64,000 nucleotides of DNA from Oscillospiraceae bacterium (GCA_015066115.1 SVOZ01000002.1:6246-70245); one strand, 5' to 3'. Positions 9,315-64,000 are shown, counted from the first letter of the stretch. Made by a program: numbers and translations. The notes: generated by a model from the letters alone, not told the origin.

Positions 9315-9390
9315 GGGCCTGTAGCGCAGCTGGGAGCGCACCACACTGGCAGTGTGGGGGTCGTGGGTTCGAATCCCATCAGGTCCACCA
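9315..9390 (+). tRNA. tRNA-Ala (anticodon GGC), CCA encoded
   Basis: Cloverleaf folded by hand: 7-bp acceptor stem with G3:U70, D arm GCGC/GCGC, anticodon stem CCACA/TGTGG with loop CTGGCAG, T arm GTGGG-TTCGAAT-CCCAT, 76 nt. Confidence 0.9.
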
Positions 9391-9438
9391 TTAATGCCCT
9401 TTGTCGAGTTTTCTTGACTATGGGCATTAAATCTTTTT

Positions 9439-9514
9439 GGGCTTGTAGCTCAGCTGGGAGAGCGCTGCGTTCGCAACGCAGAGGTCGAGGGTTCGATCCC
9501 CTTTAAGTCCACCA
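9439..9514 (+). tRNA. tRNA-Ala (anticodon CGC), CCA encoded
   Basis: Cloverleaf folded by hand: acceptor stem with G3:U70, anticodon stem CTGCG/CGCAG with loop TTCGCAA, T arm GAGGG-TTCGATC-CCCTT, 76 nt. Confidence 0.9.
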
Positions 9515-36177: not shown

Positions 36178-37536
36178 ATGTTTAACACAAAGGATATTCT
36201 TGAAACAATACATATGATATCTGACGAGCATCTTGATATCAGAACGGTTACAATGGGAATTTCCCTTTTAGACTGTGCCGACAGCGATATTGACTGCGCC
36301 TGTGAAAAGATCTACAACAAGATCACAAGCAGGGCAAAAAATCTCGTTTCGGTGTGCTCGGATATTGAGCGTGAGTACGGCATTCCCATTATAAACAAGC
36401 GCATTTCGGTTACTCCAATAGCTCTCGTTGCCGCCGCTTCTAAGGGCGGCGATGTTGTTAAATTTGCGCGCACACTACAGAAATGTGCCGACGAGGTGGG
36501 AGTAAACTTCATAGGCGGCTACAGCGCGCTTGTGCAAAAAGGCTTTGCCGCAGGCGACTTAGAGCTTATTGAAAGCATTCCCGAGGCACTTAATGTTACA
36601 CAAAACATTTGTTCTTCGGTTAACATCGGTTCAAGCAAGGCAGGAATCAACCTTGATGCAGTCGCTCTTATGGGAAGAATCATAAGGAAGTCTGCCGAGA
36701 TTACGGCCGACAGAGATTGCATAGGTCCCGCAAAGCTTGTTGTGTTCTGCAACGCGCCTGAGGACAATCCCTTTATGGCAGGCGCATTTCACGGAGTAAG
36801 CGAGCCTGACTGTGTTATAAACGTTGGCGTTTCGGGCCCCGGAGTTGTTAAATCGGCACTTGAAAGAAGCGAGGGACTTAACATCACAGAGGTTGCAGAG
36901 CTTATTAAGAGAACAGCATTTAAGATAACAAGAATGGGACAATTAGTGGCGCAGGAAGCTTCGCGCAGGCTGGGTGTTCCCTTTGGAATAGTTGACCTAT
37001 CTTTAGCGCCCACCCCTGCGGTTGGCGACTCGGTGGCTCACATTTTAGAGGAGATCGGGCTTTCGCAGTGCGGCTCTGCCGGCACAACTGCGGCGCTTGC
37101 CATTTTAAACGACGCCGTTAAAAAGGGCGGAGTTATGGCATCTTCCTCGGTTGGCGGACTTTCGGGAGCATTTATCCCCGTTTCTGAGGACGCAGGAATG
37201 ATAGCCGCCGCCAAAAACGGCACGCTCACCATTGAAAAGCTCGAGGCCATGACGGCGGTCTGCTCTGTCGGCCTTGATATGATAGTTATCCCGGGTGACA
37301 CACCTGCCGATGTTATTTCGGCGATTATTTTAGACGAAGCGGCAATCGGAATGGCAAACTTTAAAACAACCGCCGCCCGTCTTATCCCTGCCATTGGCAA
37401 AAATATGGGAGATATGCTCTCGTTTGGCGGACTTTTAGGCGAGGCTCCTGTTATGCCTGTTTCCACCGCTTCGCCTGCAAAGTTTATTTCGCGCGGCGGC
37501 CACATTCCCGCTCCCCTGCAAAGCCTTAAAAACTAA
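36178..37536 (+). CDS. UPF0210 (DUF711, PFL-like) protein
   Basis: 452 aa. The N-terminus [27 protein letters not shown] is characteristic of the family, as is its pairing with the upstream ACT gene. Confidence 0.8.
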
Positions 37537-42322: not shown

Positions 42323-44167
42323 TTACTGCTTTTTATTTTTGCGGGTAAAAAGCTTGCCTACATTTTTTGCCTTTGACTGAGCCTTTTCTATAAAGCCCTC
42401 GGCAAAAGCGAGCTGATTTGGGTTTTTCTTGTACATCATATACATCACAACGCCGACGACAACCGAGATAAAGACAAGCAGGCCTATAACAATCAGAAAA
42501 ATTTCCACAAAGGTAAAGCCGCCGAGCCTTCTTACTCCCGTTGAAACATACTCGATCTTTTCAAGGCGAGCAATAGCACCAAACGGGTCGCTTGCCTCTG
42601 TGGGAATAATTATGTCGTCAACGCTTTCATTAGGAACATTTATTCCAATGACATATTTTGTGTTTTTATTTATCGACGAAACATAAAAGCGAGCATTTGC
42701 ATTGGCATCAACGACCGACGCCTGAAGCCTTTTAGGCTTGCCGCCCTCAAGCTGATATAAAAACGCATTTGAGTTGGCCGCCGAATCGGGAAGCTTTATA
42801 ACTACATTTGTTTTTATGCTTGAAGACTCTTTAAATGTTACCTGATAGCCGTTTTCTGTGCCGAGCTTTTTGTTTGTTTTGTCAGTAGACTCGGAAACGG
42901 TGTATGTAACGCCGGTGTCTTTTTTTACCTCGTCAAATTTAAGTTCACTGCAATCAATAAACCAAATGCTTCCGCTTGCGTCAACGACCTCAACCGTCAT
43001 TTTTCTGCCTGCAAGCTCCTGTAAAAAAAGCTTGTTTACGGTGTAGGTGTTTTTAAGATAAAGGGTAAGCCTTATTTCATCAAGCTGACCATCTAAGGAA
43101 TGGCTGTCGTTGATTTTAGAAAGAGCCTCTCTCAGCTCAATTATTGCCTTTCCCCAGCTTTGCTCTCCCTCAATCGTAAGGATGATGTGAACGCTATAGT
43201 AGGGGTGGCTGTTTTGCTCGTTTTTTGTCGTAACCGATGTTGAAAGGGTGATGTCCTCATCTGATTTGACTGTGCTGTTAGTCTGCGAGATAAGAGCGCC
43301 GTTTTTGTCTGTCTCGATATCGGAGGTTCGGGTTTCCTCATCAAGTTCTCCCGCTCCGACATAACCGCCGTTTTTAAGCTCGGGAACGTCCTCAGAGATC
43401 TGATTTCTAATGGACTTTACGGTATCCTTACCTCCCGAATGATAAACGGTGTACAGGTCATTACAACGCCTGAATGCGTAGGTTTCGATTTCTGTTACAG
43501 TTTCGGGCAGTTTTATCTGCGCAAGGCTTGAGCATCCGTAAAAGCACCATTCGGGAATGGCGGTTATCTCAGCGTTTATCTCAACCCTTAAAAGACTCTC
43601 GCAATAGGCAAATGCCTCTTTGCCGATGCTTTTAACGCTCTGCGGCACTGTAATACTTACAATGCTGCGGCAGAGGTAAAACGCCTTATCCGAGATTTTT
43701 TCAAGGCCATCGGGCAGAGATAGAGCCTCAAGCTTTTGGCAGTTATAAAAGGCGGCGCGCCCGATGGTTTTAAGGCTGTTTGAGAGGTCGACAAGGCGAA
43801 GGGATGTGCAGTTATAAAACGCCTTGTCGTAAATTATCTCAACTTTATCGGGGATAGAGATGGCTTTAAGCGAGGTGCAGTTATAAAAAGCAAGCGTGCC
43901 TACAGACTCAAGCTTTTCGGGCAAAACAACCGCTGTTATCTCATCGCTAAAGCTGCTCCACGGCGCTTTATTTGCCTCGCTGTAATTTTGCATTTTGCCC
44001 TTACCGCTTATGGTAAGGGTTCCCGCTGAATAGGACCATTTTAGGTTTTCGCCGCACTTTCCGCTCTCGGCGGCAAAGGCTTTAAAGCCCAAAAGCGCCG
44101 ACAAAGCTACTGAAATTGCGACAAGGCAAAAGGCCGCCCGCGCGATATTTAGTTTTTTCATTTGCAT
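42323..44167 (-). CDS. BspA-type leucine-rich-repeat surface protein with a signal peptide and a C-terminal TM anchor
   Basis: 614 aa with a signal peptide (AISVALSALLGFKAFA) and repeated units of the form xxIGxxAFYNCTSLxxIxIP (LRR_5/BspA type). A C-terminal hydrophobic helix is followed by a basic tail. RBS AAAGGAGG. Confidence 0.8.
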   Translation of the reverse strand: MQMKKLNIARAAFCLVAISVALSALLGFKAFAAESGKCGENLKWSYSAGTLTISGKGKMQNYSEANKAPWSSFSDEITAVVLPEKLESVGTLAFYNCTSLKAISIPDKVEIIYDKAFYNCTSLRLVDLSNSLKTIGRAAFYNCQKLEALSLPDGLEKISDKAFYLCRSIVSITVPQSVKSIGKEAFAYCESLLRVEINAEITAIPEWCFYGCSSLAQIKLPETVTEIETYAFRRCNDLYTVYHSGGKDTVKSIRNQISEDVPELKNGGYVGAGELDEETRTSDIETDKNGALISQTNSTVKSDEDITLSTSVTTKNEQNSHPYYSVHIILTIEGEQSWGKAIIELREALSKINDSHSLDGQLDEIRLTLYLKNTYTVNKLFLQELAGRKMTVEVVDASGSIWFIDCSELKFDEVKKDTGVTYTVSESTDKTNKKLGTENGYQVTFKESSSIKTNVVIKLPDSAANSNAFLYQLEGGKPKRLQASVVDANANARFYVSSINKNTKYVIGINVPNESVDDIIIPTEASDPFGAIARLEKIEYVSTGVRRLGGFTFVEIFLIVIGLLVFISVVVGVVMYMMYKKNPNQLAFAEGFIEKAQSKAKNVGKLFTRKNKKQ

Positions 44168-44180
44168 AGGGGCCTCCTTT

Positions 44181-44945
44181 TTAAGCTATTTTTTCCTCGC
44201 TCTTTTTCTTTCTCTCAATAACAAAAATCGCAATAACACCAACCAAAGACATAAAAATACAGTGAAATGAAATGGTTGACATTCCTAATAGCAACTTTTC
44301 ATTATTCATAAAGAAATCAGTTACAAACCGTGTTGTCCCAAATAAAATAAGCATAATTGGAAACTGTTTTGCGTCAGATACATAGTTTTTACTCTTTGTT
44401 CGATAAACTAGATACCATGTTATTACAAGCATAATTGCTACATTAATAATTTGGATTGGAAACACCGTAGTTTGCTCTGATGGTGAATACACTCCCCAAA
44501 CACAAGGATACCCAAAACAACACCCAGTAAAAAAACATCCAATAGAACAAATTGCATAATTTAGCAAATTTGCCGCTGCCAAAAGGTCTGCCGTAACTCT
44601 CCAAGGCACTCTTATAATCTTAGCTACTAGCAATGCAACAAGGGCAATCATCACAAATGTTTTCAGTTGAGCATTCACAAGGGTTTGAATCCCTAAAACA
44701 TGATATGTTGCTGCATATGTTGATCCAATTCTTGCTAACTCGGTCAGAAGAAAATCAAGGGGATATGCAATTAACAAAAAAATAAATATCTTAACTTCAG
44801 AAAGACCTATTTTTCTTCCATACCAAATAGAAAAAATTACCGCCGCTATAGCCGCAATCGCAATACAAACCGTTCGCATTGTATCAGAAAGCCCCGCCCT
44901 ATTAAACCATATAATAATGCTATTAATCCACTCCAAAAAAAACAC
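44181..44945 (-). CDS. Polytopic membrane protein, divergent Lgt (prolipoprotein diacylglyceryl transferase)-like
   Basis: About seven hydrophobic helices. The motif SIGCFFTGCCFGYP followed by FPIQIIN resembles the Lgt motif GR(I/L)GCFLxGCCYG...PTQLYE. The start is GTG. The gene is markedly AT-rich: hand counts of two 60-nt lines give about 27 and 37 percent G+C, against about 57 percent in a line of the adjacent LRR gene. Confidence 0.45.
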   Translation of the reverse strand: MFFLEWINSIIIWFNRAGLSDTMRTVCIAIAAIAAVIFSIWYGRKIGLSEVKIFIFLLIAYPLDFLLTELARIGSTYAATYHVLGIQTLVNAQLKTFVMIALVALLVAKIIRVPWRVTADLLAAANLLNYAICSIGCFFTGCCFGYPCVWGVYSPSEQTTVFPIQIINVAIMLVITWYLVYRTKSKNYVSDAKQFPIMLILFGTTRFVTDFFMNNEKLLLGMSTISFHCIFMSLVGVIAIFVIERKKKSEEKIA

Positions 44946-45033: not shown

Positions 45034-48000
45034 TCAGTTTACTTTTTCTGTCGAATCAGTTGTTGAACCTGTAACTGATGTTACCTTAGAACCCGACGGT
45101 TTTGATGTCGTTTCTGCGCCTTGGTTACCGTAAGAAATAACAGTTCGAGTCGTGATACTATCTTCCGTAACAGAAGTGGAAGTTGATTCAACTACAGCGG
45201 TGATAGTTGTAGGTCCAGTTACTTCAACAGTTGCACCAGGGGCATAGGTCACTCCGTTCACCTTCCACCCTGTCACTCGTTTGTTTGTGGTAGTAGTCGT
45301 AAGGCTTGATTGTGCTTTGTAAATCGTAGTAGTTTCTGTGTACGGAGTATAGTAGTGCGTTGTTTTTTCATTGCATCCGGATCCCGTAGTTTCAGAACGC
45401 TCGGTATAGACAGCACGTGTGGTCGGATTACCCTGCTGAATAAATTCGCCATTTGTGGTCTTCTCGCTAGTAGTAGACCACTTATATTCCTGACTCGGCA
45501 GAGTGATTGAATGCTTACCGAGCGGCGCATTCAACTGAATTTTGCTGGGCTGCTCTCCAGTGTAAGAAGCGTCGTTGATCTTAAAGGTTACAGCCTGGTG
45601 TGAATAACTCTGCATAATAGTAACAGGATGAGAAAGCTCAACTTCAAAGCTCACATTGCTATTCACCTGAACTGTGATTTTATTTACCGTTTGCTTGCCG
45701 GCTGCATAGATCGGAACATTACCCCAGTCACTCCCCACTCCGCCAATACTATTTTCTTGTGTCAATGCAGACGGCGTGAATGTATAGGTCTTATCATAGT
45801 CCGACTTTGCTTCATTCGGGAAAAATGCTTTCGCGTTTGTAAAACTGCTTGGCATATCCGACAATGTTAATTTAACTTTCGGGAGCGAGTAACCATGGGT
45901 AGCTCCAAACCACTCCTCACCATCATCCTTGATGTATACAACTGCTTCATATTCCGAGAAACTATTCGATACTCCTGTTGTTTGAGTGTACCCTTGAGGA
46001 CTGCTTATTGTTGCGCCAGTATTTACATTAAAGGTCGTGCCCACACCCGGATTAACTCCGGTTACCTTAATGGTCGGGCGCTTAGACCAAACCTCAAGGT
46101 CGAAGGCTTTGTAATCTTCTGTGAGCTTGTTCTGGTCAGTGATCTCCACTGCAGGATTTTCCGGTGCGCCATCCAGGTTCGCAATTACCTTAAATGCCAG
46201 CTTATTGGGCAGGTATCGGGTTGCATACTGGTAATTGACATCGTTGGTTGCAAGGGTGAAGTTTGTGTTCGATCCGGAGTCCTTATTAAAGCTCATAGGA
46301 GCAAGGGACACACCCGTAACAAAGCGCTCATCGGTGTAACCGCCGTAGGTGGTTCCATCAGATGAAACATTGCTGCCATACTCATAGGCAAAGGTCACAT
46401 TGTCTACATTAAAGTAGCCGCGTCCGATCAGGTTTTTGGTATCGTTAATGCGCACCTTAATTGCACCTGAGGAAAGCTTCTGCTCTGCAAGAAGCGTTTT
46501 AGTGAGGTTTCCTTCGGCATCCTTACCCAAGGTCAAAACGCCCTTGGTGGGATCTACCAACGTGTTTCCTGTAGCTTGGTTGGTGAAATTGATCTGGGTG
46601 ATCATATCCTCATGCAACACCGCCACTGTCTGAGGCTTAAAGGCGTCCTCTGTGGTTTGAGCATCAAAGATAATGCCTTTATTATAATCTTGCTCGGTCA
46701 TATTCTCGGCAGTCATGCCCTCAGGCAAAGAATGGAGAGTGGAGTTATTGTCATATGCATTGAAAAGGCTTACGCCTTCAATTTTCCATAATCCTGCCGG
46801 AACTGCAAATTGGTAAGCCAATGCTCCAACATCTTCCTGCTTATCATAAAGACCAACGTATTTAACTTCCTCAGTGTTATCCACATTTATAAGCTTTGCA
46901 AAGATTTGCTCTGCAGCATAATCCTTAATTACGACCGACATTGTTGCAGGCTTTGCACCGGCAGGAATATACTGTGCCTCGGATGCAACAACATCAACAA
47001 AGGAGGGCGGCATAGAAGGAATAATTGTAAATACAGGAGCATCTGAATTTACCTTAGTAAGCGTATTCTCCGGAGAATCGCCCACTCTTATTGAAACGTG
47101 GCTGAATTTCCATGTACCCGGCTCTACGCTAAGCTCGCCCTCGTAATAGCCCGCGCCTGAATTATACACAAGTTTTGTGGGAATATTTTCAGTGGCAGTC
47201 ATTTTATAGATAAGCCAAGCGTCTGCAAGGTTGGGAATAAGGTCGTTGTTATTATTAAGAATTTCGACCTGCACTTTAAGCGACTCGGGGGCATCCTCAT
47301 CATCGCACACGATAGTTGTAGGTGATGTTGTTTCAACATTTACCTTCATTCCGAGGGTGAGGTCAACTGTTTTCTGCATTCCCGAGGCAAGCTCGACATA
47401 CTGACCATCTAACACAACGTACTGCATTGTGTACTCGCCCGAAGAAACAAAGTTTGCATTTCCCTGCCAACTGTTCAGCGTCGGGTTATAGGCAAAGTTT
47501 ACGTTAACGGCGGCGCCGTCCTCACGCATAAATTTACCGATAACCGTTTGGGGCATTTTGTCTGGGTTATCTGTGCCAAACTTAAGAGTAACGCTTGCTG
47601 TGTAGAAATCGGCATCGGTCATAATAAACTCTTCCATATTATAAAGAACCGAATTTATAGCAAAACCGTTTACTACAACTGTAGGATAAGACGAGCCCTC
47701 ATTTATTCTAAGGTCTCGGTCTGTTCCGTCGATGGTAACACTACGTAAAATATACTCGCCTGGGTAAAGGAAGGTGTACTCGCCTTCCCAAATTCCGTCG
47801 CCATCGGCATCGTTTAAAATAAAGGTTTCTTCGGGGGAGCCTTGTGTGTCATTAATGCGGCGGATAAAGTTTGCCGTTAATGTGCTAGGCTGTGTGCCTG
47901 TTACCCTTATTTTAACCTTAGAGGTCATTTTCCGGCCATCTGTAATTTCATCGAAATTATGGGTAACAGGGTCTATTTCCTCAACCTGTGCATAAAGCTC

Positions 48001-50376
48001 AGAGTTATAAAGCTTTTCATTATTAAGCGGAATAAGGGATACTGAGCTGCCGAACTGGATATTCATCTGGCCTTCAATATCAGCAGAAGAGAGCACCTTG
48101 TCATTTGTAAGGTTGGTTCCGTCAAGGTAAACTATAGCGGTAATACGCTTGGGAACATTCTGCTCAAGCGCGGTAATTGCATATTTTTCTTGGCCGTTTA
48201 AATCGGTGCCGATACTTATGCTCTCAACATCTAATGCGAGAGGAACTATAACCTTACCTGCCGATGCATAATGGCGCTCGGTGTCCATATATGCCGTTGT
48301 GAGCAGTGTACCTGCCTCGTCAACAAAGGCGACCTTCATAGATTTTAAAAGCTCAAGGCTTCTCTGCTGGTCAACGGGGGTATCAGCATAAAAAACATAA
48401 CAGCTGCCGCTTCCCTGTGTGGTGCTTGAAACTGTTAAAAGAGAGTGCTTTTCGCCCTCCCAAACGCGATTATCGCCCTCATAACCGATAACCGTTTCAA
48501 CCTCTTTAACCTTTTTAAGCGGCGTAGGAATTTCCTGACCGCCGAGAGCTTCCTCTGTTACAACCTGATGGCTATCGGCAAAGCGCCAACAATCAACTTC
48601 TGTTTGCTGACCTTCGGGAATATATGTAGACTCATAAACGTCATAGGAAGCCACCATCATATCCTCAAGGGCGTTTCCGCCCTCGGTTTCACCATCGGTG
48701 TTTTCCTCACCCTCAGAGGTGTTTTCTACCCTGACGGTTATTGTATAAAGCTGTACTTCCTCGCCATTTAGGTCTTTTCCCTTTACGTCAACACTGTCTG
48801 TTCTTGTAAGAACATTTCCCTGCAGGGTAAGATAAGAGTTTGCCGCATTGGTGCGAACCCAGAAGTCAACTGCAAAGCCATAAGAGTCGTTTGCAATAAG
48901 TGTGGGCTCTCCGTATTCTTCATTGATTTTTTTAGCCAGAAATGCTCTTTCATTTTCAAAATAGTTATCTGTTGCGCTTGTGGAAACATTTGATTCAATC
49001 TTCTGCTCTCCCACAATCGAAACATTAACAGTAAGCCTAAGCGGCTCACCGAGGTTTTTAATTCTGGCGCCGCTTCGGCTATCCACATTATAGAGAATGC
49101 CGTTTGTGATTTTAGTTTCGCACTCGTTACCTGCAAGTTTTAAAGCGACACCTGCGCCAACACTTTTGATCTTAAGATTTTTATAATCTCCGCCTGTTAT
49201 GGTGCATTCGCCGACATTTGTAAGATTATTTATAATATCATCAATAATTCTTGTAGTTGTTCCTTCAACAAGCGGACAGTTAGGCCAGTTAATTGAAGTT
49301 TTTGTTCCAATGTAATCAACAAGGCCGTTTATACGCACCAAATCAGCCTTAAGAAGCCTATAGTCATAAAGGAAATTATCTATATCCTTTATAATTCCCA
49401 CAGTTTTATTGCTGTCGGGATAGGTCTCAAAGCCCATTTCAACAAGCTCTTTATAGGCTGTCTTTTGAGTCTTATCATAGGTCAGGGCGAGGATATCGCC
49501 TGCAGTAATCGTTACATCTTTTTTTAATATTTTTGCCTGAAGGTTTAAAAGGCTCGCATAAACCTCCGCCTGCTCTTCAAAACAAGCGATAAGCGACTCA
49601 TACATACTTGCAAACTGTTTTAAGTCGGAAAGCTTTAGTTTTGAGTCTTTTATCATACCTGCATAGTCAGGGCTATTAACCTTTAAAATATTCTCGACCA
49701 TATATCCCGTCATCATCGAGGCGAGGGCATCCATATAGTCCTGATTACTTGCAAGAGCTTCATATTTATTCTTAAATCTTACGTTTGCGGCTTCTACTCG
49801 GTTTAACTCGGCATTGTAAAAATTCTGCTCACCCGATTCGCCAAGGGTCATTGAGGTTATAGCGCGCACGCCAAGGTTATTGGAAGCTACAAAGCGCGAA
49901 GATAAAGTGTCCCAGCTGGAATAGCCAAAGTTTGTGTTCATATCGACAACTCGGCCTGTTGCATCATAAACAGGGCCGTAGAGCGGACGCTCGATAAGGT
50001 TTGTGTCGTTTAAAAGCGAGGGGCGCAAAACAAGGTTTTTAAGGCCGTAGCGCGGGTCGTTTAGGTTAATTAAGTTACCCCAGGTCAGATTGCGCGCAAG
50101 GGTTTCGAGTCTGCTATCTCCAACCGCACTTTTACCGGGAGCAGAGCTCTCCGAAATGGTGCCGCTGGCTAAGGCTATTTCAAGGTTACCGTTAGAGGCG
50201 ACGCTTGTGCTAACATCGGAAACCTGCGGATTTAATGACAAAGAGAGCCATGCAAATGTTGAGGTTACAAGCATTGCCATCGTCATTACAAACAGCAAAG
50301 CTACCGCAACAAGCTTTTCCTTAAGATGCGGAAGTTTCTCCTTATATTCAGCTATGTTTTTCTGCGTTTGATTCAT
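45034..50376 (-). CDS. Giant (1780 aa) secreted cluster paralogue: SipW-type signal, TasA-like module, tandem beta-sandwich-like repeats and a Thr-rich C-terminus
   Basis: N-terminus K-rich, then TM, then TSTFAWLSLSLNPQVSDVSTSVASNGNLEIALAS. NLTWGNLINLNDPRYG, FAVDFWVRTNAANSYLTLQG and RITAIVYLDGTNLTNDK...MNIQFGSS all parallel the 718-aa paralogue. Residues 800-1210 carry four roughly 105-aa repeats, each ending W-G...G-Y/W....V...G. RBS GGGAGA. Confidence 0.75.
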   Translation of the reverse strand: MNQTQKNIAEYKEKLPHLKEKLVAVALLFVMTMAMLVTSTFAWLSLSLNPQVSDVSTSVASNGNLEIALASGTISESSAPGKSAVGDSRLETLARNLTWGNLINLNDPRYGLKNLVLRPSLLNDTNLIERPLYGPVYDATGRVVDMNTNFGYSSWDTLSSRFVASNNLGVRAITSMTLGESGEQNFYNAELNRVEAANVRFKNKYEALASNQDYMDALASMMTGYMVENILKVNSPDYAGMIKDSKLKLSDLKQFASMYESLIACFEEQAEVYASLLNLQAKILKKDVTITAGDILALTYDKTQKTAYKELVEMGFETYPDSNKTVGIIKDIDNFLYDYRLLKADLVRINGLVDYIGTKTSINWPNCPLVEGTTTRIIDDIINNLTNVGECTITGGDYKNLKIKSVGAGVALKLAGNECETKITNGILYNVDSRSGARIKNLGEPLRLTVNVSIVGEQKIESNVSTSATDNYFENERAFLAKKINEEYGEPTLIANDSYGFAVDFWVRTNAANSYLTLQGNVLTRTDSVDVKGKDLNGEEVQLYTITVRVENTSEGEENTDGETEGGNALEDMMVASYDVYESTYIPEGQQTEVDCWRFADSHQVVTEEALGGQEIPTPLKKVKEVETVIGYEGDNRVWEGEKHSLLTVSSTTQGSGSCYVFYADTPVDQQRSLELLKSMKVAFVDEAGTLLTTAYMDTERHYASAGKVIVPLALDVESISIGTDLNGQEKYAITALEQNVPKRITAIVYLDGTNLTNDKVLSSADIEGQMNIQFGSSVSLIPLNNEKLYNSELYAQVEEIDPVTHNFDEITDGRKMTSKVKIRVTGTQPSTLTANFIRRINDTQGSPEETFILNDADGDGIWEGEYTFLYPGEYILRSVTIDGTDRDLRINEGSSYPTVVVNGFAINSVLYNMEEFIMTDADFYTASVTLKFGTDNPDKMPQTVIGKFMREDGAAVNVNFAYNPTLNSWQGNANFVSSGEYTMQYVVLDGQYVELASGMQKTVDLTLGMKVNVETTSPTTIVCDDEDAPESLKVQVEILNNNNDLIPNLADAWLIYKMTATENIPTKLVYNSGAGYYEGELSVEPGTWKFSHVSIRVGDSPENTLTKVNSDAPVFTIIPSMPPSFVDVVASEAQYIPAGAKPATMSVVIKDYAAEQIFAKLINVDNTEEVKYVGLYDKQEDVGALAYQFAVPAGLWKIEGVSLFNAYDNNSTLHSLPEGMTAENMTEQDYNKGIIFDAQTTEDAFKPQTVAVLHEDMITQINFTNQATGNTLVDPTKGVLTLGKDAEGNLTKTLLAEQKLSSGAIKVRINDTKNLIGRGYFNVDNVTFAYEYGSNVSSDGTTYGGYTDERFVTGVSLAPMSFNKDSGSNTNFTLATNDVNYQYATRYLPNKLAFKVIANLDGAPENPAVEITDQNKLTEDYKAFDLEVWSKRPTIKVTGVNPGVGTTFNVNTGATISSPQGYTQTTGVSNSFSEYEAVVYIKDDGEEWFGATHGYSLPKVKLTLSDMPSSFTNAKAFFPNEAKSDYDKTYTFTPSALTQENSIGGVGSDWGNVPIYAAGKQTVNKITVQVNSNVSFEVELSHPVTIMQSYSHQAVTFKINDASYTGEQPSKIQLNAPLGKHSITLPSQEYKWSTTSEKTTNGEFIQQGNPTTRAVYTERSETTGSGCNEKTTHYYTPYTETTTIYKAQSSLTTTTTNKRVTGWKVNGVTYAPGATVEVTGPTTITAVVESTSTSVTEDSITTRTVISYGNQGAETTSKPSGSKVTSVTGSTTDSTEKVN

Positions 50377-50411
50377 AGTTTTTCTCCCAAAAAAGTTTGC
50401 TTACAACTAAT

Positions 50412-51068
50412 TTATTTAACGCGTTCAAGACAGATAAATATCTGCGATGAGCTTATCTGTGCATTATACAAGGTTAATTTAAATGTGAGGGTTGAGCTTT
50501 TGCCGCCCTGCAATAAAAACTCAAGCTCATCCGACTCATTTTGTTCGTCAATGCTTTCATAAAAGCAATAAAACTGCCCATTTTTTTGGTTTTTTTTGTA
50601 AAAATCGGTGTTTTCCTTTATTGTTTCGGCTTTTGATGGGTGCTCAACGTTTTCATTGTCTGCAAGAAGGGTTATTTCGGGGGTCAGGATTTCTGTTTCC
50701 TGCTTATCCTCCCCTTCTGCATTTAACTCTGTCTGAGCGCCTTCCATAACAAAGGCTCGGATGCGAAAGCGCGCATCTTTATCGGGCGGCTGAGCGCCAT
50801 CTTCGGCTATGTTGCTCAAGGTAAAGGTTCCGCTTATCTGGCCGCTTCCCGCTTGCCACTGCGTAGGCTCAAAAAGGGTTTTATCTGAGGCCTCATTAGA
50901 ATCAAGATAGATCGGCGGCTGAGCATCTGCCAAAAAGCCTATATCGTGATTTTCTTGGGTGATATATCTGCCATAGGTTATTCTGACAGACAGGCAGGCT
51001 ATCAGCATAAGCGAAAGCACAAGAACAGATATTTTAAATACAAGGCTTGTTTTGTATTTTTCGCTCAT
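50412..51068 (-). CDS. Small cluster protein with a signal peptide (lipobox-like LIAC and/or a SipW-like ITYGRY motif)
   Basis: 218 aa starting MSEKYKTSLVFKISVLVLSLMLIAC-LSVRITYGRYITQ. RBS AAGGAG. I recognise no family. Confidence 0.6.
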   Translation of the reverse strand: MSEKYKTSLVFKISVLVLSLMLIACLSVRITYGRYITQENHDIGFLADAQPPIYLDSNEASDKTLFEPTQWQAGSGQISGTFTLSNIAEDGAQPPDKDARFRIRAFVMEGAQTELNAEGEDKQETEILTPEITLLADNENVEHPSKAETIKENTDFYKKNQKNGQFYCFYESIDEQNESDELEFLLQGGKSSTLTFKLTLYNAQISSSQIFICLERVK

Positions 51069-51108
51069 ACCATTCTCCTTTTCGCAAAGCCTAACTGACT
51101 GCCGCTTT

Positions 51109-53025
51109 TTATTCCTTTACTACCGTGTACCCATCTGAAGAGCTGTTTATACTGTAGCTTTCTTTAAGGTAAGCTGACACGTCGCTGCTAAAGCTTCCAC
51201 CCGAAATTTCTATTTTTGCCTGTGAAACGCCCTCAGGGTACTGTCTTACAGCGAGAGTTCCCTCCTGAGTGCCTGTAATTTTAGTTTTATCGCCAGAAAT
51301 GAACACATTTGTTTGCCATTCGGTGTAATTTGCTTCGAGGTAAACTCCGTCGCCTGTATCCCACCAGCCGCTCTTGGAAAGCTCTGAGGGATCGCTGGGC
51401 AGAGGCGTATACTCGCCTGTTCCCGTTACGGTACAGTCGACAATATTAACGGTTCCGCCCTTGACAGCAACGCCTGTATATCCCTCAAGCGTACTTGAAG
51501 TTACAGTTAATGTACTGTCTTTTTGCGGGAAGTAAATTGCGGCGTACTTACCTTTTACGCTGCTGTTTGTAATTTGAATATCGGTTCCGTACTGAGCGCC
51601 GTTACAGATAACGCCGGCATAATTCTGTCCTATAATATTGCAATTTTCTACAACAATGGACGTTTTTTGCTCGGAAACGGCACCGTTTCCATAGATCCAG
51701 AGGCCATCCTCGGCGGCATTTATCTCACAGCCCTTAAGGTGCACCACAGAATCAATGCCGCTACTGCTCTTATTATCTGAAATCACAACTCCGTCATCGA
51801 CATTTGTAATGGTAACATTATTTAGGGTTACAGAGGACGCTATCGACGAGACGCCTATTCCCTCATTTCCGCAAATTTCTCCGTTACTGAGCATTACAGA
51901 AGCTCCATCCTTCGCCTCTACCACAGTTGCGGCGGTAGATGTGATCTTATGGCCTGCAAGGTCAATTACTGCCTGAGAAGATTCGTTAATGCTTATAGCC
52001 TCGCTTAAAGTTATATCTTCATTAAGGGTTACTAAATTAAGTCCCGGAGTGCTGAGAGCCTCATTTAAGCTCTGCTCGTCAAACACCAACACGCCGTCAC
52101 TACTGCAGTTTTGTCCTGTTATCTGAACGGTAGCCTCTCCGATTGGTTGGCTGTTACCGCCGAGCTGAGTATCTAAGACCGAGCCTGCATTAATCTCATC
52201 AAGAGTGCAAAGATATGCAAACACTCCATAGCCTGTTTCATTATTAATGTCAACAGGATAGTAACCCTCAGATGTAACGGCACTTGTGTCTATCTGGCCC
52301 TCGTAGCCGTCTGTTTGCGAGAAGGTTTTGAGAAACTCCTCAGCAGTTATCTCTCCGTCTACGGTTTCGAGCCTGCCGTTTGACTTAAAGGTTGTTTTCA
52401 TAAAGTCAAAATCATATTCAATGGGGCGCAAAAACTCTTCTATCTGCACATTTCCTGTTTCGGTTTTTCTGCCGTAAACATAGTGTCCCAAATTGTCATA
52501 GGTCCATTCCCATTTAATTACTGGCTGGGCTCCCGACTTAAACCCAAGCATAAGCTCATTGTGGGGGAAAATCGTGTATGTATAGCTGTTTCTGCCGTTA
52601 ATATACACGCGGTCTACCGTTTCTCCGTGTCTTACGGCAGAGGTGTCAACATAAAAGTAGACGCGTTTTTTCATTTGGTCAATTATCGCATCTTTTGAAA
52701 TTTTCACGCTTGCGGCGGCAAGGTCGGCGCTGTCATTAGTCATCTGAATTTCTATAACGCCGCTATCACCCGGTGATGCCGGAGTATCTACCCCTGCGAG
52801 CTCAACCTTTGCGCTGAAATTCCAGGTGTCTGCCGAGAACATAAGTCCGCCCGTGTGGACAACGTTGGTCTGCCACGCAATTGTTTGCGAAAAGATGAGC
52901 ACAGTCGTGACAATGAGCATAATCAAAAGCAAAGCCACATGAAAAATAACCTTTTTCTTAAATGGCTTTAAAGCTGCGAGCAGGTTGCCCAAGGGGTTAT
53001 TCAGTTTTGGGCTGGGTATCTTCAC
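51109..53025 (-). CDS. Cluster paralogue with a SipW-type signal, a TasA-like N-domain and a C-terminal right-handed beta-helix-like repeat region
   Basis: 638 aa with a TM helix then SQTIAWQT, and SPGDSGVIEIQMTNDSADL (compare the TasA PGD...N-G motif). The C-terminal half has irregular 20-25-aa repeats rich in G/N/V/T/I (VTLNNVTITNVDDGVVISDN; IVVENCNIIGQNYAGVICNG; IQITNSSVKGKYAAIYF), as in pectate-lyase-fold proteins. The GTG start lies 10 nt after GAGGAG. Confidence 0.65.
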   Translation of the reverse strand: MKIPSPKLNNPLGNLLAALKPFKKKVIFHVALLLIMLIVTTVLIFSQTIAWQTNVVHTGGLMFSADTWNFSAKVELAGVDTPASPGDSGVIEIQMTNDSADLAAASVKISKDAIIDQMKKRVYFYVDTSAVRHGETVDRVYINGRNSYTYTIFPHNELMLGFKSGAQPVIKWEWTYDNLGHYVYGRKTETGNVQIEEFLRPIEYDFDFMKTTFKSNGRLETVDGEITAEEFLKTFSQTDGYEGQIDTSAVTSEGYYPVDINNETGYGVFAYLCTLDEINAGSVLDTQLGGNSQPIGEATVQITGQNCSSDGVLVFDEQSLNEALSTPGLNLVTLNEDITLSEAISINESSQAVIDLAGHKITSTAATVVEAKDGASVMLSNGEICGNEGIGVSSIASSVTLNNVTITNVDDGVVISDNKSSSGIDSVVHLKGCEINAAEDGLWIYGNGAVSEQKTSIVVENCNIIGQNYAGVICNGAQYGTDIQITNSSVKGKYAAIYFPQKDSTLTVTSSTLEGYTGVAVKGGTVNIVDCTVTGTGEYTPLPSDPSELSKSGWWDTGDGVYLEANYTEWQTNVFISGDKTKITGTQEGTLAVRQYPEGVSQAKIEISGGSFSSDVSAYLKESYSINSSSDGYTVVKE

Positions 53026-53722
53026 TTGCTTTTAACTCCTCTATAAGTTCTTCTCTGATTCTCTGACACATTTGGTCATATTCCTGCGAAGAAATCACTT
53101 CTGATTTTACATCGGCTAACTGCGCTTTATCTTGCTCCTCAACCGACATAACAAGCTTTTTCATATCCTGTTTAATGGTTTTAACACTACTGCTTAAAAC
53201 TAATGCCAAAATTAAAACCGACGGAAGCACTATACAGGCAAAAAAGCCATAGCGCCCCGAAACAAAGGAAAGCAGAGAGGAAATGGCGCTATCGCCCGAA
53301 GACCATACAACCTTTCCCACCAAATTGCTTTCAAGCACATATCTTCCGTCTACCGAAAGATTGGCATCTCCCTTTGTTAAAAGCCTTCTTTGGCCATCCT
53401 CAGCTCTATCGATATCAACCACTCTGTGAGTAATTATAGTTCCAAACATATCAGCCGACTGAGAGCGGAAGCTTACTATATCCTCCATCTGCACCTCTTC
53501 TATGGGCACATCCTTAGTTAAGATAATTTCTCCAACCATAAGGTTTGGCTCCATACTCGGCGTTACAACCCGAAAAAAACTATATTTTCCGAAAGAAACA
53601 TAGCCCTTTCCGAGCACCTGAACAACAACAAACAGGCACAAGCATACCGTTATAACAAGCAGTGCCGTTGCCGCTGAGGACAATATTTTTTTAAGAAGTT
53701 TTTTATTTTGTTGCTTCTTCAT
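52997..53722 (-). CDS. sipW: SipW-type (S26B, Ser/His) signal peptidase I, copy 2, with a C-terminal TM helix and an acidic coiled-coil tail
   Basis: N-terminal TM helix, TPSMEP (catalytic Ser), ITHRV (His) and TKGDAN, then a second TM helix (FFACIVLPSVLILALVL) and a roughly 60-aa charged tail. The ATG at 53722 overlaps the upstream gene by 20 nt. Confidence 0.8.
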   Translation of the reverse strand: MKKQQNKKLLKKILSSAATALLVITVCLCLFVVVQVLGKGYVSFGKYSFFRVVTPSMEPNLMVGEIILTKDVPIEEVQMEDIVSFRSQSADMFGTIITHRVVDIDRAEDGQRRLLTKGDANLSVDGRYVLESNLVGKVVWSSGDSAISSLLSFVSGRYGFFACIVLPSVLILALVLSSSVKTIKQDMKKLVMSVEEQDKAQLADVKSEVISSQEYDQMCQRIREELIEELKASEDTQPKTE

Positions 53723-62817: not shown

Positions 62818-62892
62818 TTTTTTTTCCTTTCTTGGAAGTGTTTTTTGCCTTTTTTATTTTAACAGCGATCTCTCGCTGATTATAAAAGGAAA

Positions 62893-63909
62893 CTAAATCA
62901 GACTATCTTCAAGTTGCATGAAGAAGTCCATTCCCAAATGACCGTCAATAAGGTCATTTGTACATTGCGGATCGTCACCCTCAAGCCAGATGACGACTGT
63001 AAATCTATGTACATCCTGAGGCTCAAACTGCTCTACAAGGCCGTTTTCAACAAGCGAGCCAGACAGGAAAGCCTTGGGCTTTACCCGCCAATATGTAAGA
63101 GAGCCTGATTTTTTAACAACCTCGTACTGTCCCTCAGGGTCGGCCGCAAGCTCATAAAGCGGAGCCTTTACGTAGCCTCTTGTATTATCGTTTTGCAAGG
63201 GGAGCATCTGAGGAGTTCCATCCTCATTTGCCTTTGCATAAAGCGTCATTTTTCCGTCAACAAAAAGCATTATCCATGCCGCCGATGACACATTATTGCT
63301 TTCGGAATTAAGCCTTAGCTGCCAAGACATATTTTGCGCGCTTTCACCATCATTTCTGACATAAAAGGTGTATGCAAAATAGTTGTCGTGGTGCGCTCCG
63401 TCGATTTCGTCTACATTTTCGGGAATGTTCACTATCGAAATGCAGGGAACGGCTTCGGCAGGGGTTGCAAACAGGTGTGAAGTAGGATTTTCAAAGCCGC
63501 GGGTTTCAGAAATAGTAAAACCCTCTCTGAAAAGCTCATCTGACATACTGATGGTAAAATGGCCTCGCAGGTCGGTTATGGCCGAAAGGCCGTAAAGCAT
63601 CAGCATAGCTAAGGCTCCTGCGCCCAAAAGCGCCCACAGGCCTTTGCCGCTAAACAGCCAAATGATAATAGCAAAGCGCCTGTTTTTATCAAAATAAAGG
63701 CCAAGGCTTGAGGCTGTGAGCTCAAATTCCTTTTTGCTCTTTATTCCCATTTCCCGCATTTGTTTGCGGAGCTTTTTTCTGCCTTGTTTTATCTTTATGA
63801 CCTCGTCCTTTGAAAGAACGATGCCCGCTCGCCTCTTTTTAAAGGGTCCGCGTTGTTTTCGCTCGGCGCCTGTTATTTTTGGCTGCTTCTTGTTATTTAA
63901 CTCATCCAT
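62893..63909 (-). CDS. Membrane-anchored cluster paralogue (EGxDxxC subfamily) with a roughly 85-aa basic cytoplasmic N-tail
   Basis: K/R-rich N-terminus, one TM helix (FAIIIWLFSGKGLWALLGAGALAMLMLYGL), an ectodomain with NYFAYTFYVRNDGESAQ, and a C-terminal FTVVIWLEGDDPQCTNDL. It has no TYAWF-type motif. The ATG at 63909 follows AAGGTG. The ORF track extends to 63948. Confidence 0.65.
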   Translation of the reverse strand: MDELNNKKQPKITGAERKQRGPFKKRRAGIVLSKDEVIKIKQGRKKLRKQMREMGIKSKKEFELTASSLGLYFDKNRRFAIIIWLFSGKGLWALLGAGALAMLMLYGLSAITDLRGHFTISMSDELFREGFTISETRGFENPTSHLFATPAEAVPCISIVNIPENVDEIDGAHHDNYFAYTFYVRNDGESAQNMSWQLRLNSESNNVSSAAWIMLFVDGKMTLYAKANEDGTPQMLPLQNDNTRGYVKAPLYELAADPEGQYEVVKKSGSLTYWRVKPKAFLSGSLVENGLVEQFEPQDVHRFTVVIWLEGDDPQCTNDLIDGHLGMDFFMQLEDSLI

Positions 63910-63919
63910 TTTAGGCACC

Positions 63920-64000
63920 TTACAGCTCTTCTCTGGCGAGAATATCAAGAATCATCTCGTCCTCGTCAACAGCAACTCCAACCATTGTTCCCGAATAGCA
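63920..64000 (-). CDS. 3' end of an upstream minus-strand ORF, truncated by the window edge
   Basis: The open frame reads ...CYSGTMVGVAVDEDEMILDILAREEL-stop (TAA at 63922..63920), 10 nt before the next start. Its function cannot be determined from 26 residues. Confidence 0.4.
   Translation of the reverse strand, partial: CYSGTMVGVAVDEDEMILDILAREEL

Follow-up and report, generated by a model that had tools for sequence, protein, structure and literature searches.

A putative chromosomal CoCoPALM-type locus in an Oscillospiraceae bacterium combines SipW-like signal peptidases and a McrBC-derived GTPase pair with candidate surface-fibre subunits

What is the role of an operon that places an AAA+ NTPase among secreted proteins and two signal peptidases? 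The question is raised by the end of a 64,000-nucleotide (nt) stretch from an Oscillospiraceae bacterium (GCA_015066115.1, SVOZ01000002.1:6246-70245), which is called the window here and whose positions are counted from its first letter. The original prediction described positions 45034-64000 as an expanded TasA/SipW-like cluster, a candidate fibre or appendage system that could not be matched to any described system. Our analysis indicates that the locus is, judged from its sequence, a chromosomal CoCoPALM-type system. This kind of system is already named but has not been analysed before; new here are the component list, the link to genes of cyclic di-GMP (c-di-GMP) type and the cultured hosts. 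With a probability of about 0.55, the locus encodes a system for a surface fibre or for adhesins that are processed by SipW; a co-opted McrBC GTPase, together with c-di-GMP, would control or power it.

The locus consists of 13 tightly packed, co-directional genes on the minus strand (42323-63909), with junctions from a 29-nt overlap to a 131-nt gap, and the operon extends beyond the window edge at 64000. The features are listed from the window edge inwards (aa, amino acids; TM, transmembrane; LRR, leucine-rich repeat; a slash marks the predicted cleavage site).

63920-64000, minus strand: 3' end (26 codons and stop) of the gene for a 488-aa cytoplasmic HD-GYP/EAL-like protein; the translation CYSGTMVGVAVDEDEMILDILAREEL is the C-terminus of the parent-contig gene
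62893-63909, minus strand: g1, 338-aa type II membrane protein with one TM segment and WLEGDDPQCT, without the T-x-A-W motif
60661-62817, minus strand: g2, predicted 718-aa secreted subunit; signal anchor ending STYA/WFTLSTAPEVTGI; beta-sandwich with a helical insertion
59525-60529, minus strand: g3, predicted 334-aa secreted beta-sandwich protein; ATYT/WFSLSRTPQVS, C-terminal LWLEGQDVDCT
58584-59420, minus strand: g4, SipW-like (ER/archaeal-type) signal peptidase I with two TM segments; TIGR02228 80.9 bits
56950-58539, minus strand: g5, predicted membrane-anchored McrB-type AAA+ GTPase; AAA_5, TM segment
55043-56935, minus strand: g6, predicted cytoplasmic McrC-type partner; DUF2357-like N-domain and charged coiled coil
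53703-55043, minus strand: g7, predicted 446-aa secreted g3 paralogue; ITYA/WTTLSSAP, C-terminal VWIEGQDADCT
52997-53764, minus strand: g8, second SipW-like signal peptidase I, 241 or 255 aa by start codon; TIGR02228 79.2 bits
51109-53025, minus strand: g9, predicted 638-aa secreted right-handed beta-helix protein; SQTIA/WQTNVV, Pfam Beta_helix E 3e-8
50412-51068, minus strand: g10, possible 218-aa lipoprotein; lipobox-like signal end LIAC
45034-50376, minus strand: g11, 1780-aa giant g2 paralogue whose residues 1-790 align with full-length g2
44181-44945, minus strand: Lgt-like polytopic membrane protein; Pfam LGT (PF01790) E 6.7e-12
42323-44167, minus strand: BspA-type LRR surface protein, the operon's last gene in this genome; Pfam LRR_5 E 5e-66

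The eleven co-directional open reading frames (ORFs) of the original prediction lie at the coordinates it gave, and its junctions are exact: a TAATG stop/start at 55043 (g6/g7), a 20-nt overlap at 53703-53722 (g7/g8) and a 29-nt overlap at 52997-53025 (g8/g9). Other intergenic gaps in the cluster are 14, 35, 40 and 44 nt. The cluster runs off the right edge, as was claimed, but its other boundary, put at 45034, was too narrow, and the Lgt-like and BspA-type LRR genes belong to it as well. Only the last 26 codons of the HD-GYP/EAL-like gene are within the window, and further upstream genes are present on the parent contig, which is 410 kb long and comes from a Ruminococcaceae/Oscillospiraceae metagenome-assembled genome. 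The genes after the LRR gene are on the plus strand, and the locus neighbourhood consists of housekeeping genes.

An embedded membrane NTPase with a coiled-coil protein had been noted in the middle of the operon, and both were found. In g5, an N-terminal hydrophobic helix, a TM segment, a short coiled coil and an acidic linker precede the AAA+ domain, which carries the Walker A motif GISGTGKTS, the Walker B motif VILDEMN and INNDD (invariant in 41 sequences). It matches E. coli McrB (6hz4) at E 1e-3 and the PADLOC entry PDC-M26A at E 2.6e-40. It is also 37 % identical over 300 aa to 800-aa plasmid ATPases, each of which is followed by a DUF2357 (McrC N-domain) gene. The g5 family aligned with McrB-like ATPases preceding DUF2357 genes at 100 % (hhalign, E 2.4e-56, 335 columns). 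The motif in the plasmid relatives is N-H-D-E, and the NNDD of g5 fits both NxD and NxxD. g5 is the most conserved protein of the cluster, with 64-79 % identity in species where g2 has 31-45 %.

Residues 74-279 of g6 aligned with DUF2357 proteins encoded after McrB-like genes (hhalign 96.7 %, E 3.4e-10). Residues 341-630 (290 aa) contain 58 % E/K/R/Q, 2 Pro and 1 Gly and form a charged coiled coil. Neither a Pfam nuclease match nor a TM segment was found in g6, and its hidden Markov model (HMM) matched a 777-aa partner protein of Acholeplasma at E 4.6e-40. The pair shares with McrBC and CoCoNuT systems the McrB AAA+ core with its signature motifs (g5), the McrC DUF2357 domain (g6) and the gene order B then C. 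In contrast to those systems, g5 and g6 have no nucleic-acid-binding specificity domain or PD-(D/E)xK nuclease, g5 is membrane-anchored, and the module stands among secreted proteins. These comparisons show g5 and g6 to be McrB- and McrC-derived, with a predicted membrane anchor replacing the DNA-binding domain and a predicted coiled coil replacing the nuclease. A precedent is PcdA, a McrB-family protein of S. aureus that is reported to be co-opted for a non-defence role (PMC10602043).

Relatives of the GTPase were seen elsewhere. A 682-aa McrB-like GTPase (P0248) has a signal peptide and an extracellular domain of ~290 aa before its TM segment, so the GTPase family also includes members with an external sensor-like domain. 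On plasmids of Deinococcus, Polaromonas and Pseudanabaena (L089, L090 and L091), a conserved island of four genes encodes an AAA protein of ~1100 aa, a hypothetical protein of ~480 aa, the 800-aa McrB-like ATPase and a DUF2357 protein. No annotated relatives are closer to the g5 AAA+ core than these islands, which contain no peptidases and are presumably CoCoNuT-type defence systems. g2 had no plasmid match.

The trio of peptidase, TM-bearing McrB-like GTPase and coiled-coil McrC-like protein fits CoCoPALM, so the statement that the cluster matches no described system does not hold. CoCoPALM systems were named in two sentences by Bell et al. (eLife 2024), who deferred their analysis to a later paper. 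In that description, the GTPase belongs to the CoCoNuT-like, NxD-motif clade and carries a fused FtsB-like TM/coiled-coil domain, both the McrB and the McrC homologues carry coiled coils, signal-peptidase-family genes are associated, and pilus assembly is predicted. Three of these four features were found in g4-g5-g6: the McrB-like GTPase clade, the coiled-coil DUF2357 McrC homologue and the signal-peptidase association. g4 immediately precedes g5, and g8 is the second gene after g6; this arrangement is kept in relatives and in Acholeplasma. For the FtsB-like feature, g5 has its TM segment at ~49-86, followed by the heptad-rich KKYDEVVKQVRALQRDLIRANYEKDRLLAM; no Pfam DivIC/FtsB match was obtained on 8 N-terminal domains, the best being FtsL_2 at E 0.12 in one.

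The published text on CoCoPALM does not include the secreted substrate families, the g1 anchor paralogue, the c-di-GMP-type neighbour or the Lgt-like and LRR genes found at this locus, nor the Oscillospiraceae expansion seen here (the 718-aa and 1780-aa subunits and the beta-helix protein). No other paper in the literature searched uses the name for these systems, and the literature searched on SipW, TasA and pili in Oscillospiraceae, Ruminococcaceae and Acholeplasma contained nothing on this system. The idea of a fibre or appendage is common to Bell et al. and the original prediction, and it is a prediction on both sides.

Is the gene set conserved as a unit? A pattern-seeded scan with one genome per GTDB species yielded 139 g2 relatives, and 80 loci were kept, all from gut or rumen metagenome-assembled genomes. 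The order HD-GYP/EAL-like gene-g1-g2-g3-g4-g5-g6-g7-g8-g9 recurs in dozens of species, down to ~31 % g2 identity, and synteny was found in at least 80 species-level genomes. Among the 80 loci, g1 was present in 76, the HD-GYP/EAL-like gene in 74, g3 in 68, g4 in 66, g5 in 60 and g6 in 58, counts that are limited by contig ends. Four sub-modules permute in the metagenome loci but stay co-located: the HD-GYP/EAL-like gene with g1-g2, g3-g4-g5-g6, g7-g8-g9, and g11 with the Lgt-like and LRR genes. The genes are therefore strongly co-conserved across related genomes, as was expected of a genuine cluster, which argues for a dedicated multi-gene machine and not a chance neighbourhood.

The conservation extends to Mollicutes. 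An exhaustive g5 search found full-length relatives down to 33 % identity, and TM-anchored McrB-like genes had 753 representatives at E ≤ 1e-30. One clade of these relatives belongs to Mycoplasmatota, among them Acholeplasma laidlawii, A. hippikon and Ca. Coproplasma. In A. laidlawii and A. hippikon alike, two GGDEF-EAL genes lie directly upstream. The A. laidlawii locus (CP103951.1, positions 1,091,222-1,112,763) starts with these two genes, followed by a g1-like gene (HMM E 4e-21) and two g3-like genes (E 1e-9 to 1e-11) with the signal ends TVTYAWLSMS and TTFAWFTLG and the motif IW(V/L)EGWDAD. Then come a SipW gene, a McrB-like gene (E 4e-149), a McrC-like gene (E 5e-40) and another SipW gene. 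The locus ends with TasA-sized proteins of 220 and 188 aa, a SipW gene, TasA-sized proteins of 187 and 216 aa and a 2476-aa giant, and it has three signal peptidases in all. In three more Mollicute loci, c-di-GMP-type genes also lie directly upstream (two GGDEF-EAL genes in two of them, EAL and GGDEF-EAL in Ca. Coproplasma), and PF09823 (DUF2357) is recorded on the McrC-like gene of two of these three loci. The fifth locus from the Mollicute search (L165) is more scattered in its layout, with one GGDEF/EAL gene upstream. In a minimal version from Ca. Coproplasma, a 227-aa g2-like protein lacks the helical insertion; its match to g2 is weak (hhalign 65.8 % over 43 N-terminal columns).

The secreted proteins are tied together by their signal ends. 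The pattern T[YFI][AT]W[FLITQ][STQ] has 5 matches in the six-frame translation of the whole 64 kb against a shuffled expectation of 0.03, which bears out the claim of five products with a common motif after the TM segment. All five matches stand directly after an N-terminal hydrophobic segment (g2, g3, g7, g9 and g11), and the T-[YFI]-[AT]-W motif is kept in orthologues from dozens of species. The predicted -3 residue is Thr in all five, and the -1 residue is Ala in four and Thr in g3, to be compared with GTWA/AF in TasA.

Seven paralogues had been counted, and five of them were borne out (g1, g2, g3, g7 and g11). g2 and g11 aligned at 100 % (hhalign, E 3.6e-68, 612 columns; BLASTP E 2e-23) and g3 and g7 at 99.9 % over their full length. 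g2 and g3 aligned at 97.8 % in the N-terminal ~110 aa alone, and g1 and g3 aligned at the C-terminus at 92.5 % directly. A Mollicute g1-like family, at 99.8 % to g1, raised the latter to 95.4 % over 195 columns. g9 and g10 were rejected as paralogues of g2 or g3, since no profile relationship was detected past the signal region, which is all they have in common. The two flavours of C-terminal motif are real and conserved: VYLDG..ND...N(L/I)QF(A/G)SS in g2 and g11, and W(L/I)EG(Q/D)DxxCT in g1, g3 and g7.

The g2 family has more than 2468 homologues (counted as cluster representatives), none with a Pfam domain. The g2 beta-sandwich core comprises residues 59-175 and 483-695, with a variable helical insertion of ~300 aa. 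Across 95 orthologues, residues 31-60 are 85 % identical, in contrast to only 12-30 % in the insertion. Relatives carry 1-3 g2 copies per locus, and g2 is our candidate for the major subunit. g3, which is homologous to 314- and 313-aa proteins of Acholeplasma (98.7 %, hhalign), is a candidate minor subunit. g11 has, after its g2-like residues 1-790, a C-terminal extension of ~1000 aa of beta-rich repeats and is a candidate adhesin-bearing subunit. In g1, a single TM segment separates a basic, conserved N-domain of ~90 aa on the cytoplasmic side from an extracellular beta-domain, which is a paralogue of g3 and g7. Because g1 has no cleavage motif, it should stay in the membrane, and we propose it as a membrane anchor or base. 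The motif MT.AWYTNVVQT is kept in 41 orthologues of g9, a candidate for an accessory or adhesive role. g10 is poorly conserved (3 orthologues by BLASTP); with the signal-end consensus LAGC in 4 sequences including the window protein, it is possibly a lipoprotein. In four related loci (L045, L044, L052 and L075), two or three g2 paralogues stand in tandem or the g11-Lgt-LRR block is shifted to directly after g2, which suggests subunit diversification like that of pilins and flagellins.

That two peptidases are of SipW type is confirmed by the TIGR02228 scores of g4 and g8 (80.9 and 79.2 bits, cutoff 51.85). Both keep the catalytic residues: Ser (DSMYP), His (THR) and Asp (KGDNN) in g4, and Ser (PSMEP), His (THR) and Asp (KGDAN) in g8. 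SM.P, THR and KGD(N/A)N are conserved in 68 (g4) and 53 (g8) sequences. Against NF046067, the Bacillus SipW equivalog, g4 and g8 scored 101 and 64 bits (g4 E 5.7e-29) with a cutoff of 190, so they are SipW-like but not equivalogs. The two are 25-31 % identical to each other, and both end in charged cytoplasmic tails of ~60-70 aa (~70 aa in g4).

Do the paralogues belong to the TasA family, as originally predicted? HMM, profile-profile and fold searches did not bear this out. With Pfam Peptidase_M73 (PF12389), no window protein matched at E ≤ 0.1 and none of 70 g3-family members at E ≤ 1. The signal ends resemble the TasA-like T-x-A followed by an aromatic residue, but TIGR04088, the model of SipW-cognate signals, gave no match at E ≤ 0.1 for g1-g10 (g11 was scanned against Pfam only). 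TIGR04089/04090 (BsaA-type) did not match the window proteins either. The TasA profile used for comparison combined a TasA sequence, validated by tblastn, with four annotated plasmid 'TasA family' proteins. Against it, hhalign gave 0.3 % and 0.4 %, and at most 12.2 % via Mollicute homologues. The sole aligned piece was the signal ending (…ATYTWFS against …GGTWAAFN), which was not significant. In Mollicutes, the 188-aa protein of A. laidlawii scored 18.1 bits with TIGR04088 (cutoff 19) and E 0.05 with Peptidase_M73, and the 187-aa protein E 0.002 with TIGR04089.

AlphaFold2 (AF2) modelled both g2 (predicted local distance difference test score, pLDDT, 87; predicted template modelling score, pTM, 0.79) and g3 (pLDDT 85; pTM 0.80) as confident beta-sandwiches. 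The invariant post-cleavage segment of g2 has low pLDDT in the monomer model, as would be expected if it folds only in a partner. Sequence searches of the PDB with both family profiles found no solved relative. When the two models were compared with the PDB by Foldseek, nothing matched at E ≤ 1e-3 and TasA was outside the top 50. The weak top matches were concanavalin-type and glycoside hydrolase family 16 jelly rolls and AbpA, an archaeal TasA-like donor-strand pilin, none of them significant; AbpA (7ueg_A) ranked 5 for g3 (E 0.072, probability 0.20) and 44 for g2, with E 0.07-0.5 over the two models. The likeness to TasA thus appears to be one of function, in the SipW-type signal, the sandwich fold and the similar terminal strands, without membership in the family. 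As for type IV pilus, Tad or Com systems, the window proteins had no T2SSE, Peptidase_A24 or pilin matches, and the conserved signal motif follows the hydrophobic segment and does not precede it, unlike in a class III signal peptide.

The known SipW systems are still useful for comparison. tapA-sipW-tasA of B. subtilis, sipW-tasA-calY of B. cereus and the AbpA pili likewise have a dedicated SipW-type peptidase adjoining secreted beta-sandwich substrates. The TasA and AbpA systems also share the T-x-A and aromatic signal ending, an anchor-like extra protein and the …LQF… pattern of the last strand. In contrast to the TasA systems, this cluster comprises at least 13 genes, encodes a GTPase pair and giant subunits, and has both a helical insertion domain and coiled-coil tails on its two peptidases. 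Another clostridial SipW operon is sipW-bsaA-bsaB-bsaC of C. perfringens, where the TasA-like BsaA forms membrane-anchored polymers by donor-strand exchange (PMC7395162; PMC11580942). Efficient BsaA secretion needs some type IV pilus-associated genes (PMC11580942), by which a SipW fibre is coupled to an NTPase-driven apparatus. That energising apparatus resembles a type IV pilus or type II secretion system and is encoded elsewhere, whereas the McrBC-derived pair here is inside the operon. Also, neither a von Willebrand factor A protein nor detectable BsaA-family homology was found at this locus.

The gene at the window edge suggests a link to c-di-GMP. On the parent contig (L002, 7430-8896), the HD-GYP/EAL-like protein matches Pfam HD_5 at E 1.8e-12 and EAL at E 0.0024. 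HQ replaces the HD dyad, and HMERWDGSGYP is retained. Its weak EAL-like C-terminal half aligns, at E 1e-4 in a search of 15 sequences, with the EAL domain of the Acholeplasma protein encoded at the corresponding position. The protein is probably a degenerate cyclic-dinucleotide sensor and not an enzyme.

From these components the following mechanism can be proposed. The precursors would be exported via Sec, and SipW would cut after T-x-A, so that the mature protein would begin with an invariant segment (WFTLSTAPEVTGI..GANGxLE) that is conserved more than any other part of g2. This N-terminus would join subunits by donor-strand-like complementation into an extracellular filament, in which g2 may be the major subunit with a hypervariable exposed helical domain, g3 and g7 minor subunits, and g11, g9 and the LRR protein adhesive or accessory parts. 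The uncleaved paralogue g1 would hold the filament on the membrane. At the cytoplasmic face, a membrane-anchored g5 hexamer would be activated by g6, and coiled coils would connect it with the basic N-domain of g1 and with the charged peptidase tails (g4 and g8). The pair could then gate or power processing and assembly on a cyclic-dinucleotide signal sensed by the HD-GYP/EAL protein. A narrower version is put forward tentatively, and we regard it as doubtful: a membrane-anchored McrB/McrC GTPase ring, wired by coiled coils to SipW and the anchor subunit, would serve as motor or inside-out switch and, controlled by c-di-GMP, assemble a donor-strand fibre from subunits exported via Sec.

Several points weigh against this reading of a c-di-GMP-controlled, GTPase-assisted fibre. 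Neither TasA nor AbpA nor any other pilin was matched significantly in sequence, profile or fold, and g3 has Thr and not Ala at -1. Promoters and terminators were not predicted above the level of shuffled sequence, and no Rfam match reached the gathering score in three loci including the upstream region, which gives no sign of a riboswitch or other RNA control. In Bacillus, Sec/SipW export and TasA-type polymerisation need no dedicated NTPase, so the role of g5 and g6 is a conjecture. To our knowledge, McrB-family motors act only on nucleic acid and McrC, not on membrane proteins. The filament and the SipW cleavage are predictions from genes and models, and the suggested cyclic-dinucleotide link comes from gene adjacency and degenerate domains only.

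The absence of detectable pilin or TasA homology would also be compatible with a system that makes no fibre and instead displays and releases monomeric adhesins under regulation. Here the signal anchors would tether g2, g11 and g9, SipW would shed or mature them, and the c-di-GMP-type sensor and the GTPase would act as an inside-out switch. The LapD-LapG-LapA system offers an analogy, with its degenerate c-di-GMP-type receptor, extracytoplasmic protease and giant surface proteins cut at the N-terminus. The proteins are unrelated, however: LapG is a cysteine protease and LapD is transmembrane, whereas this locus of a monoderm has a SipW serine peptidase and a soluble HD-GYP/EAL-like protein. 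Such a switch is suggested by the degenerate c-di-GMP-type gene that adjoins the cluster in 74 of the 80 loci and in the Mollicute loci, by the long cytoplasmic tails on both peptidases, and by the adhesin-like domains (beta-helix, LRR and giant repeat protein). But the post-cleavage N-terminal segment is conserved far beyond the needs of a cleavage site, the paralogues form a subunit-like set of major, minor and anchor proteins typical of filaments, and small TasA-sized members occur in Mollicutes. We consider adhesin release without a fibre rather unlikely. If there is a fibre, its time and place could differ, and the product would then be an appendage or coat of the spore or of a sporulation stage instead of a biofilm fibre of vegetative cells. 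Spores are formed by many members of this clostridial group, and one plasmid TasA homologue is annotated 'putative spore coat-associated protein'. Endospore appendage families are reported to be widespread in Firmicutes (PMC12357932). However, no sporulation genes adjoin the cluster, and the system is equally present in non-sporulating, wall-less Acholeplasma, so a spore structure is improbable.

The McrBC ancestry itself raises the question of defence. g5 and g6 might be a McrBC/CoCoNuT-like nucleic-acid sensor with membrane and secreted effectors, or a defence island inserted in an adhesin operon, as could be read from the match of g5 to a PADLOC defence candidate and from its closest annotated relatives in plasmid McrBC-like islands. 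Against this, g5 has no DNA-binding domain and g6 no nuclease, and the two are the most conserved genes of the cluster, fixed between peptidase and secreted paralogues from Clostridia to Mollicutes. The context is one of chromosomal housekeeping genes and not a mobile element, and no meaningful PHROG matches or other phage signals were found. A conflict function is very improbable on these grounds. The fibre reading, at the probability given above, is the one that we retain.

The flanking genes were also compared among the relatives. In 13 sequences (the window protein and 12 homologues), the Lgt-like protein keeps FPSQ..E and G..RF....R, and the signature is replaced by C...GCC.G; the canonical Lgt signature motif is G-R-x-G-N-F-x-N-x-E. 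Its gene stands directly after g11 in L075, L096, L103, L115, L122, L130-L136 and other loci. g10, encoded near it, has the lipobox-like LIAC/LAGC. The LRR protein has a signal peptide and a C-terminal TM anchor, and its gene accompanies the cluster in three arrangements, following g11 or preceding g7 or g3; g11 is linked with both the Lgt-like and the LRR genes in rearranged loci. On the other side, the parent contig (L002, 1-7382) encodes a 2105-aa dockerin protein and two paralogous FIVAR proteins (521 and 492 aa) before the HD-GYP/EAL-like gene, and dockerin/FIVAR homologues lie upstream in 48 to 55 of the 80 related loci. The FIVAR proteins (u_492 and u_521) were rejected as SipW substrates, having ordinary AxA-type signal peptides and a C-terminal TM anchor.

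Three further observations concern the rest of the window. An 890-aa ORF at 10388-13060 (minus strand) joins a MoCF_biosynth/CinA part (residues 1-410) with a sortase domain (563-739); if this is not an unusual fusion, the mechanical ORF call has run two genes together. A tandem tRNA-Ala pair with the anticodons GGC and CGC lies at 9315-9514 (plus strand). A DUF711 gene at 36178-37536 (plus strand) is ~5 kb from the cluster, and DUF711 with an adjoining ACT gene is also found near the CoCoPALM-like locus L165 (20824-21539); this is probably a coincidence.

The system occurs in the cultured A. laidlawii and A. hippikon, which have complete genomes, so the question becomes directly testable, which it was not from the mention of CoCoPALM alone. 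If the fibre reading is true, abundant uncultured gut and rumen Clostridia (Oscillospiraceae, Acutalibacteraceae and others) and Mollicutes would build a major surface structure by an unstudied route, cell-surface biogenesis would have recruited a GTPase of type IV restriction, and c-di-GMP-type signalling would be linked to SipW processing. If the GTPase ring is in addition the motor or switch, monoderm and wall-less bacteria would have a new way of coupling filament assembly to an NTPase, one that differs from type IV and sortase pili and uses a subunit family not recognisably related to known pilins or TasA. The fibre reading would also give a function to large unannotated families such as that of g2.

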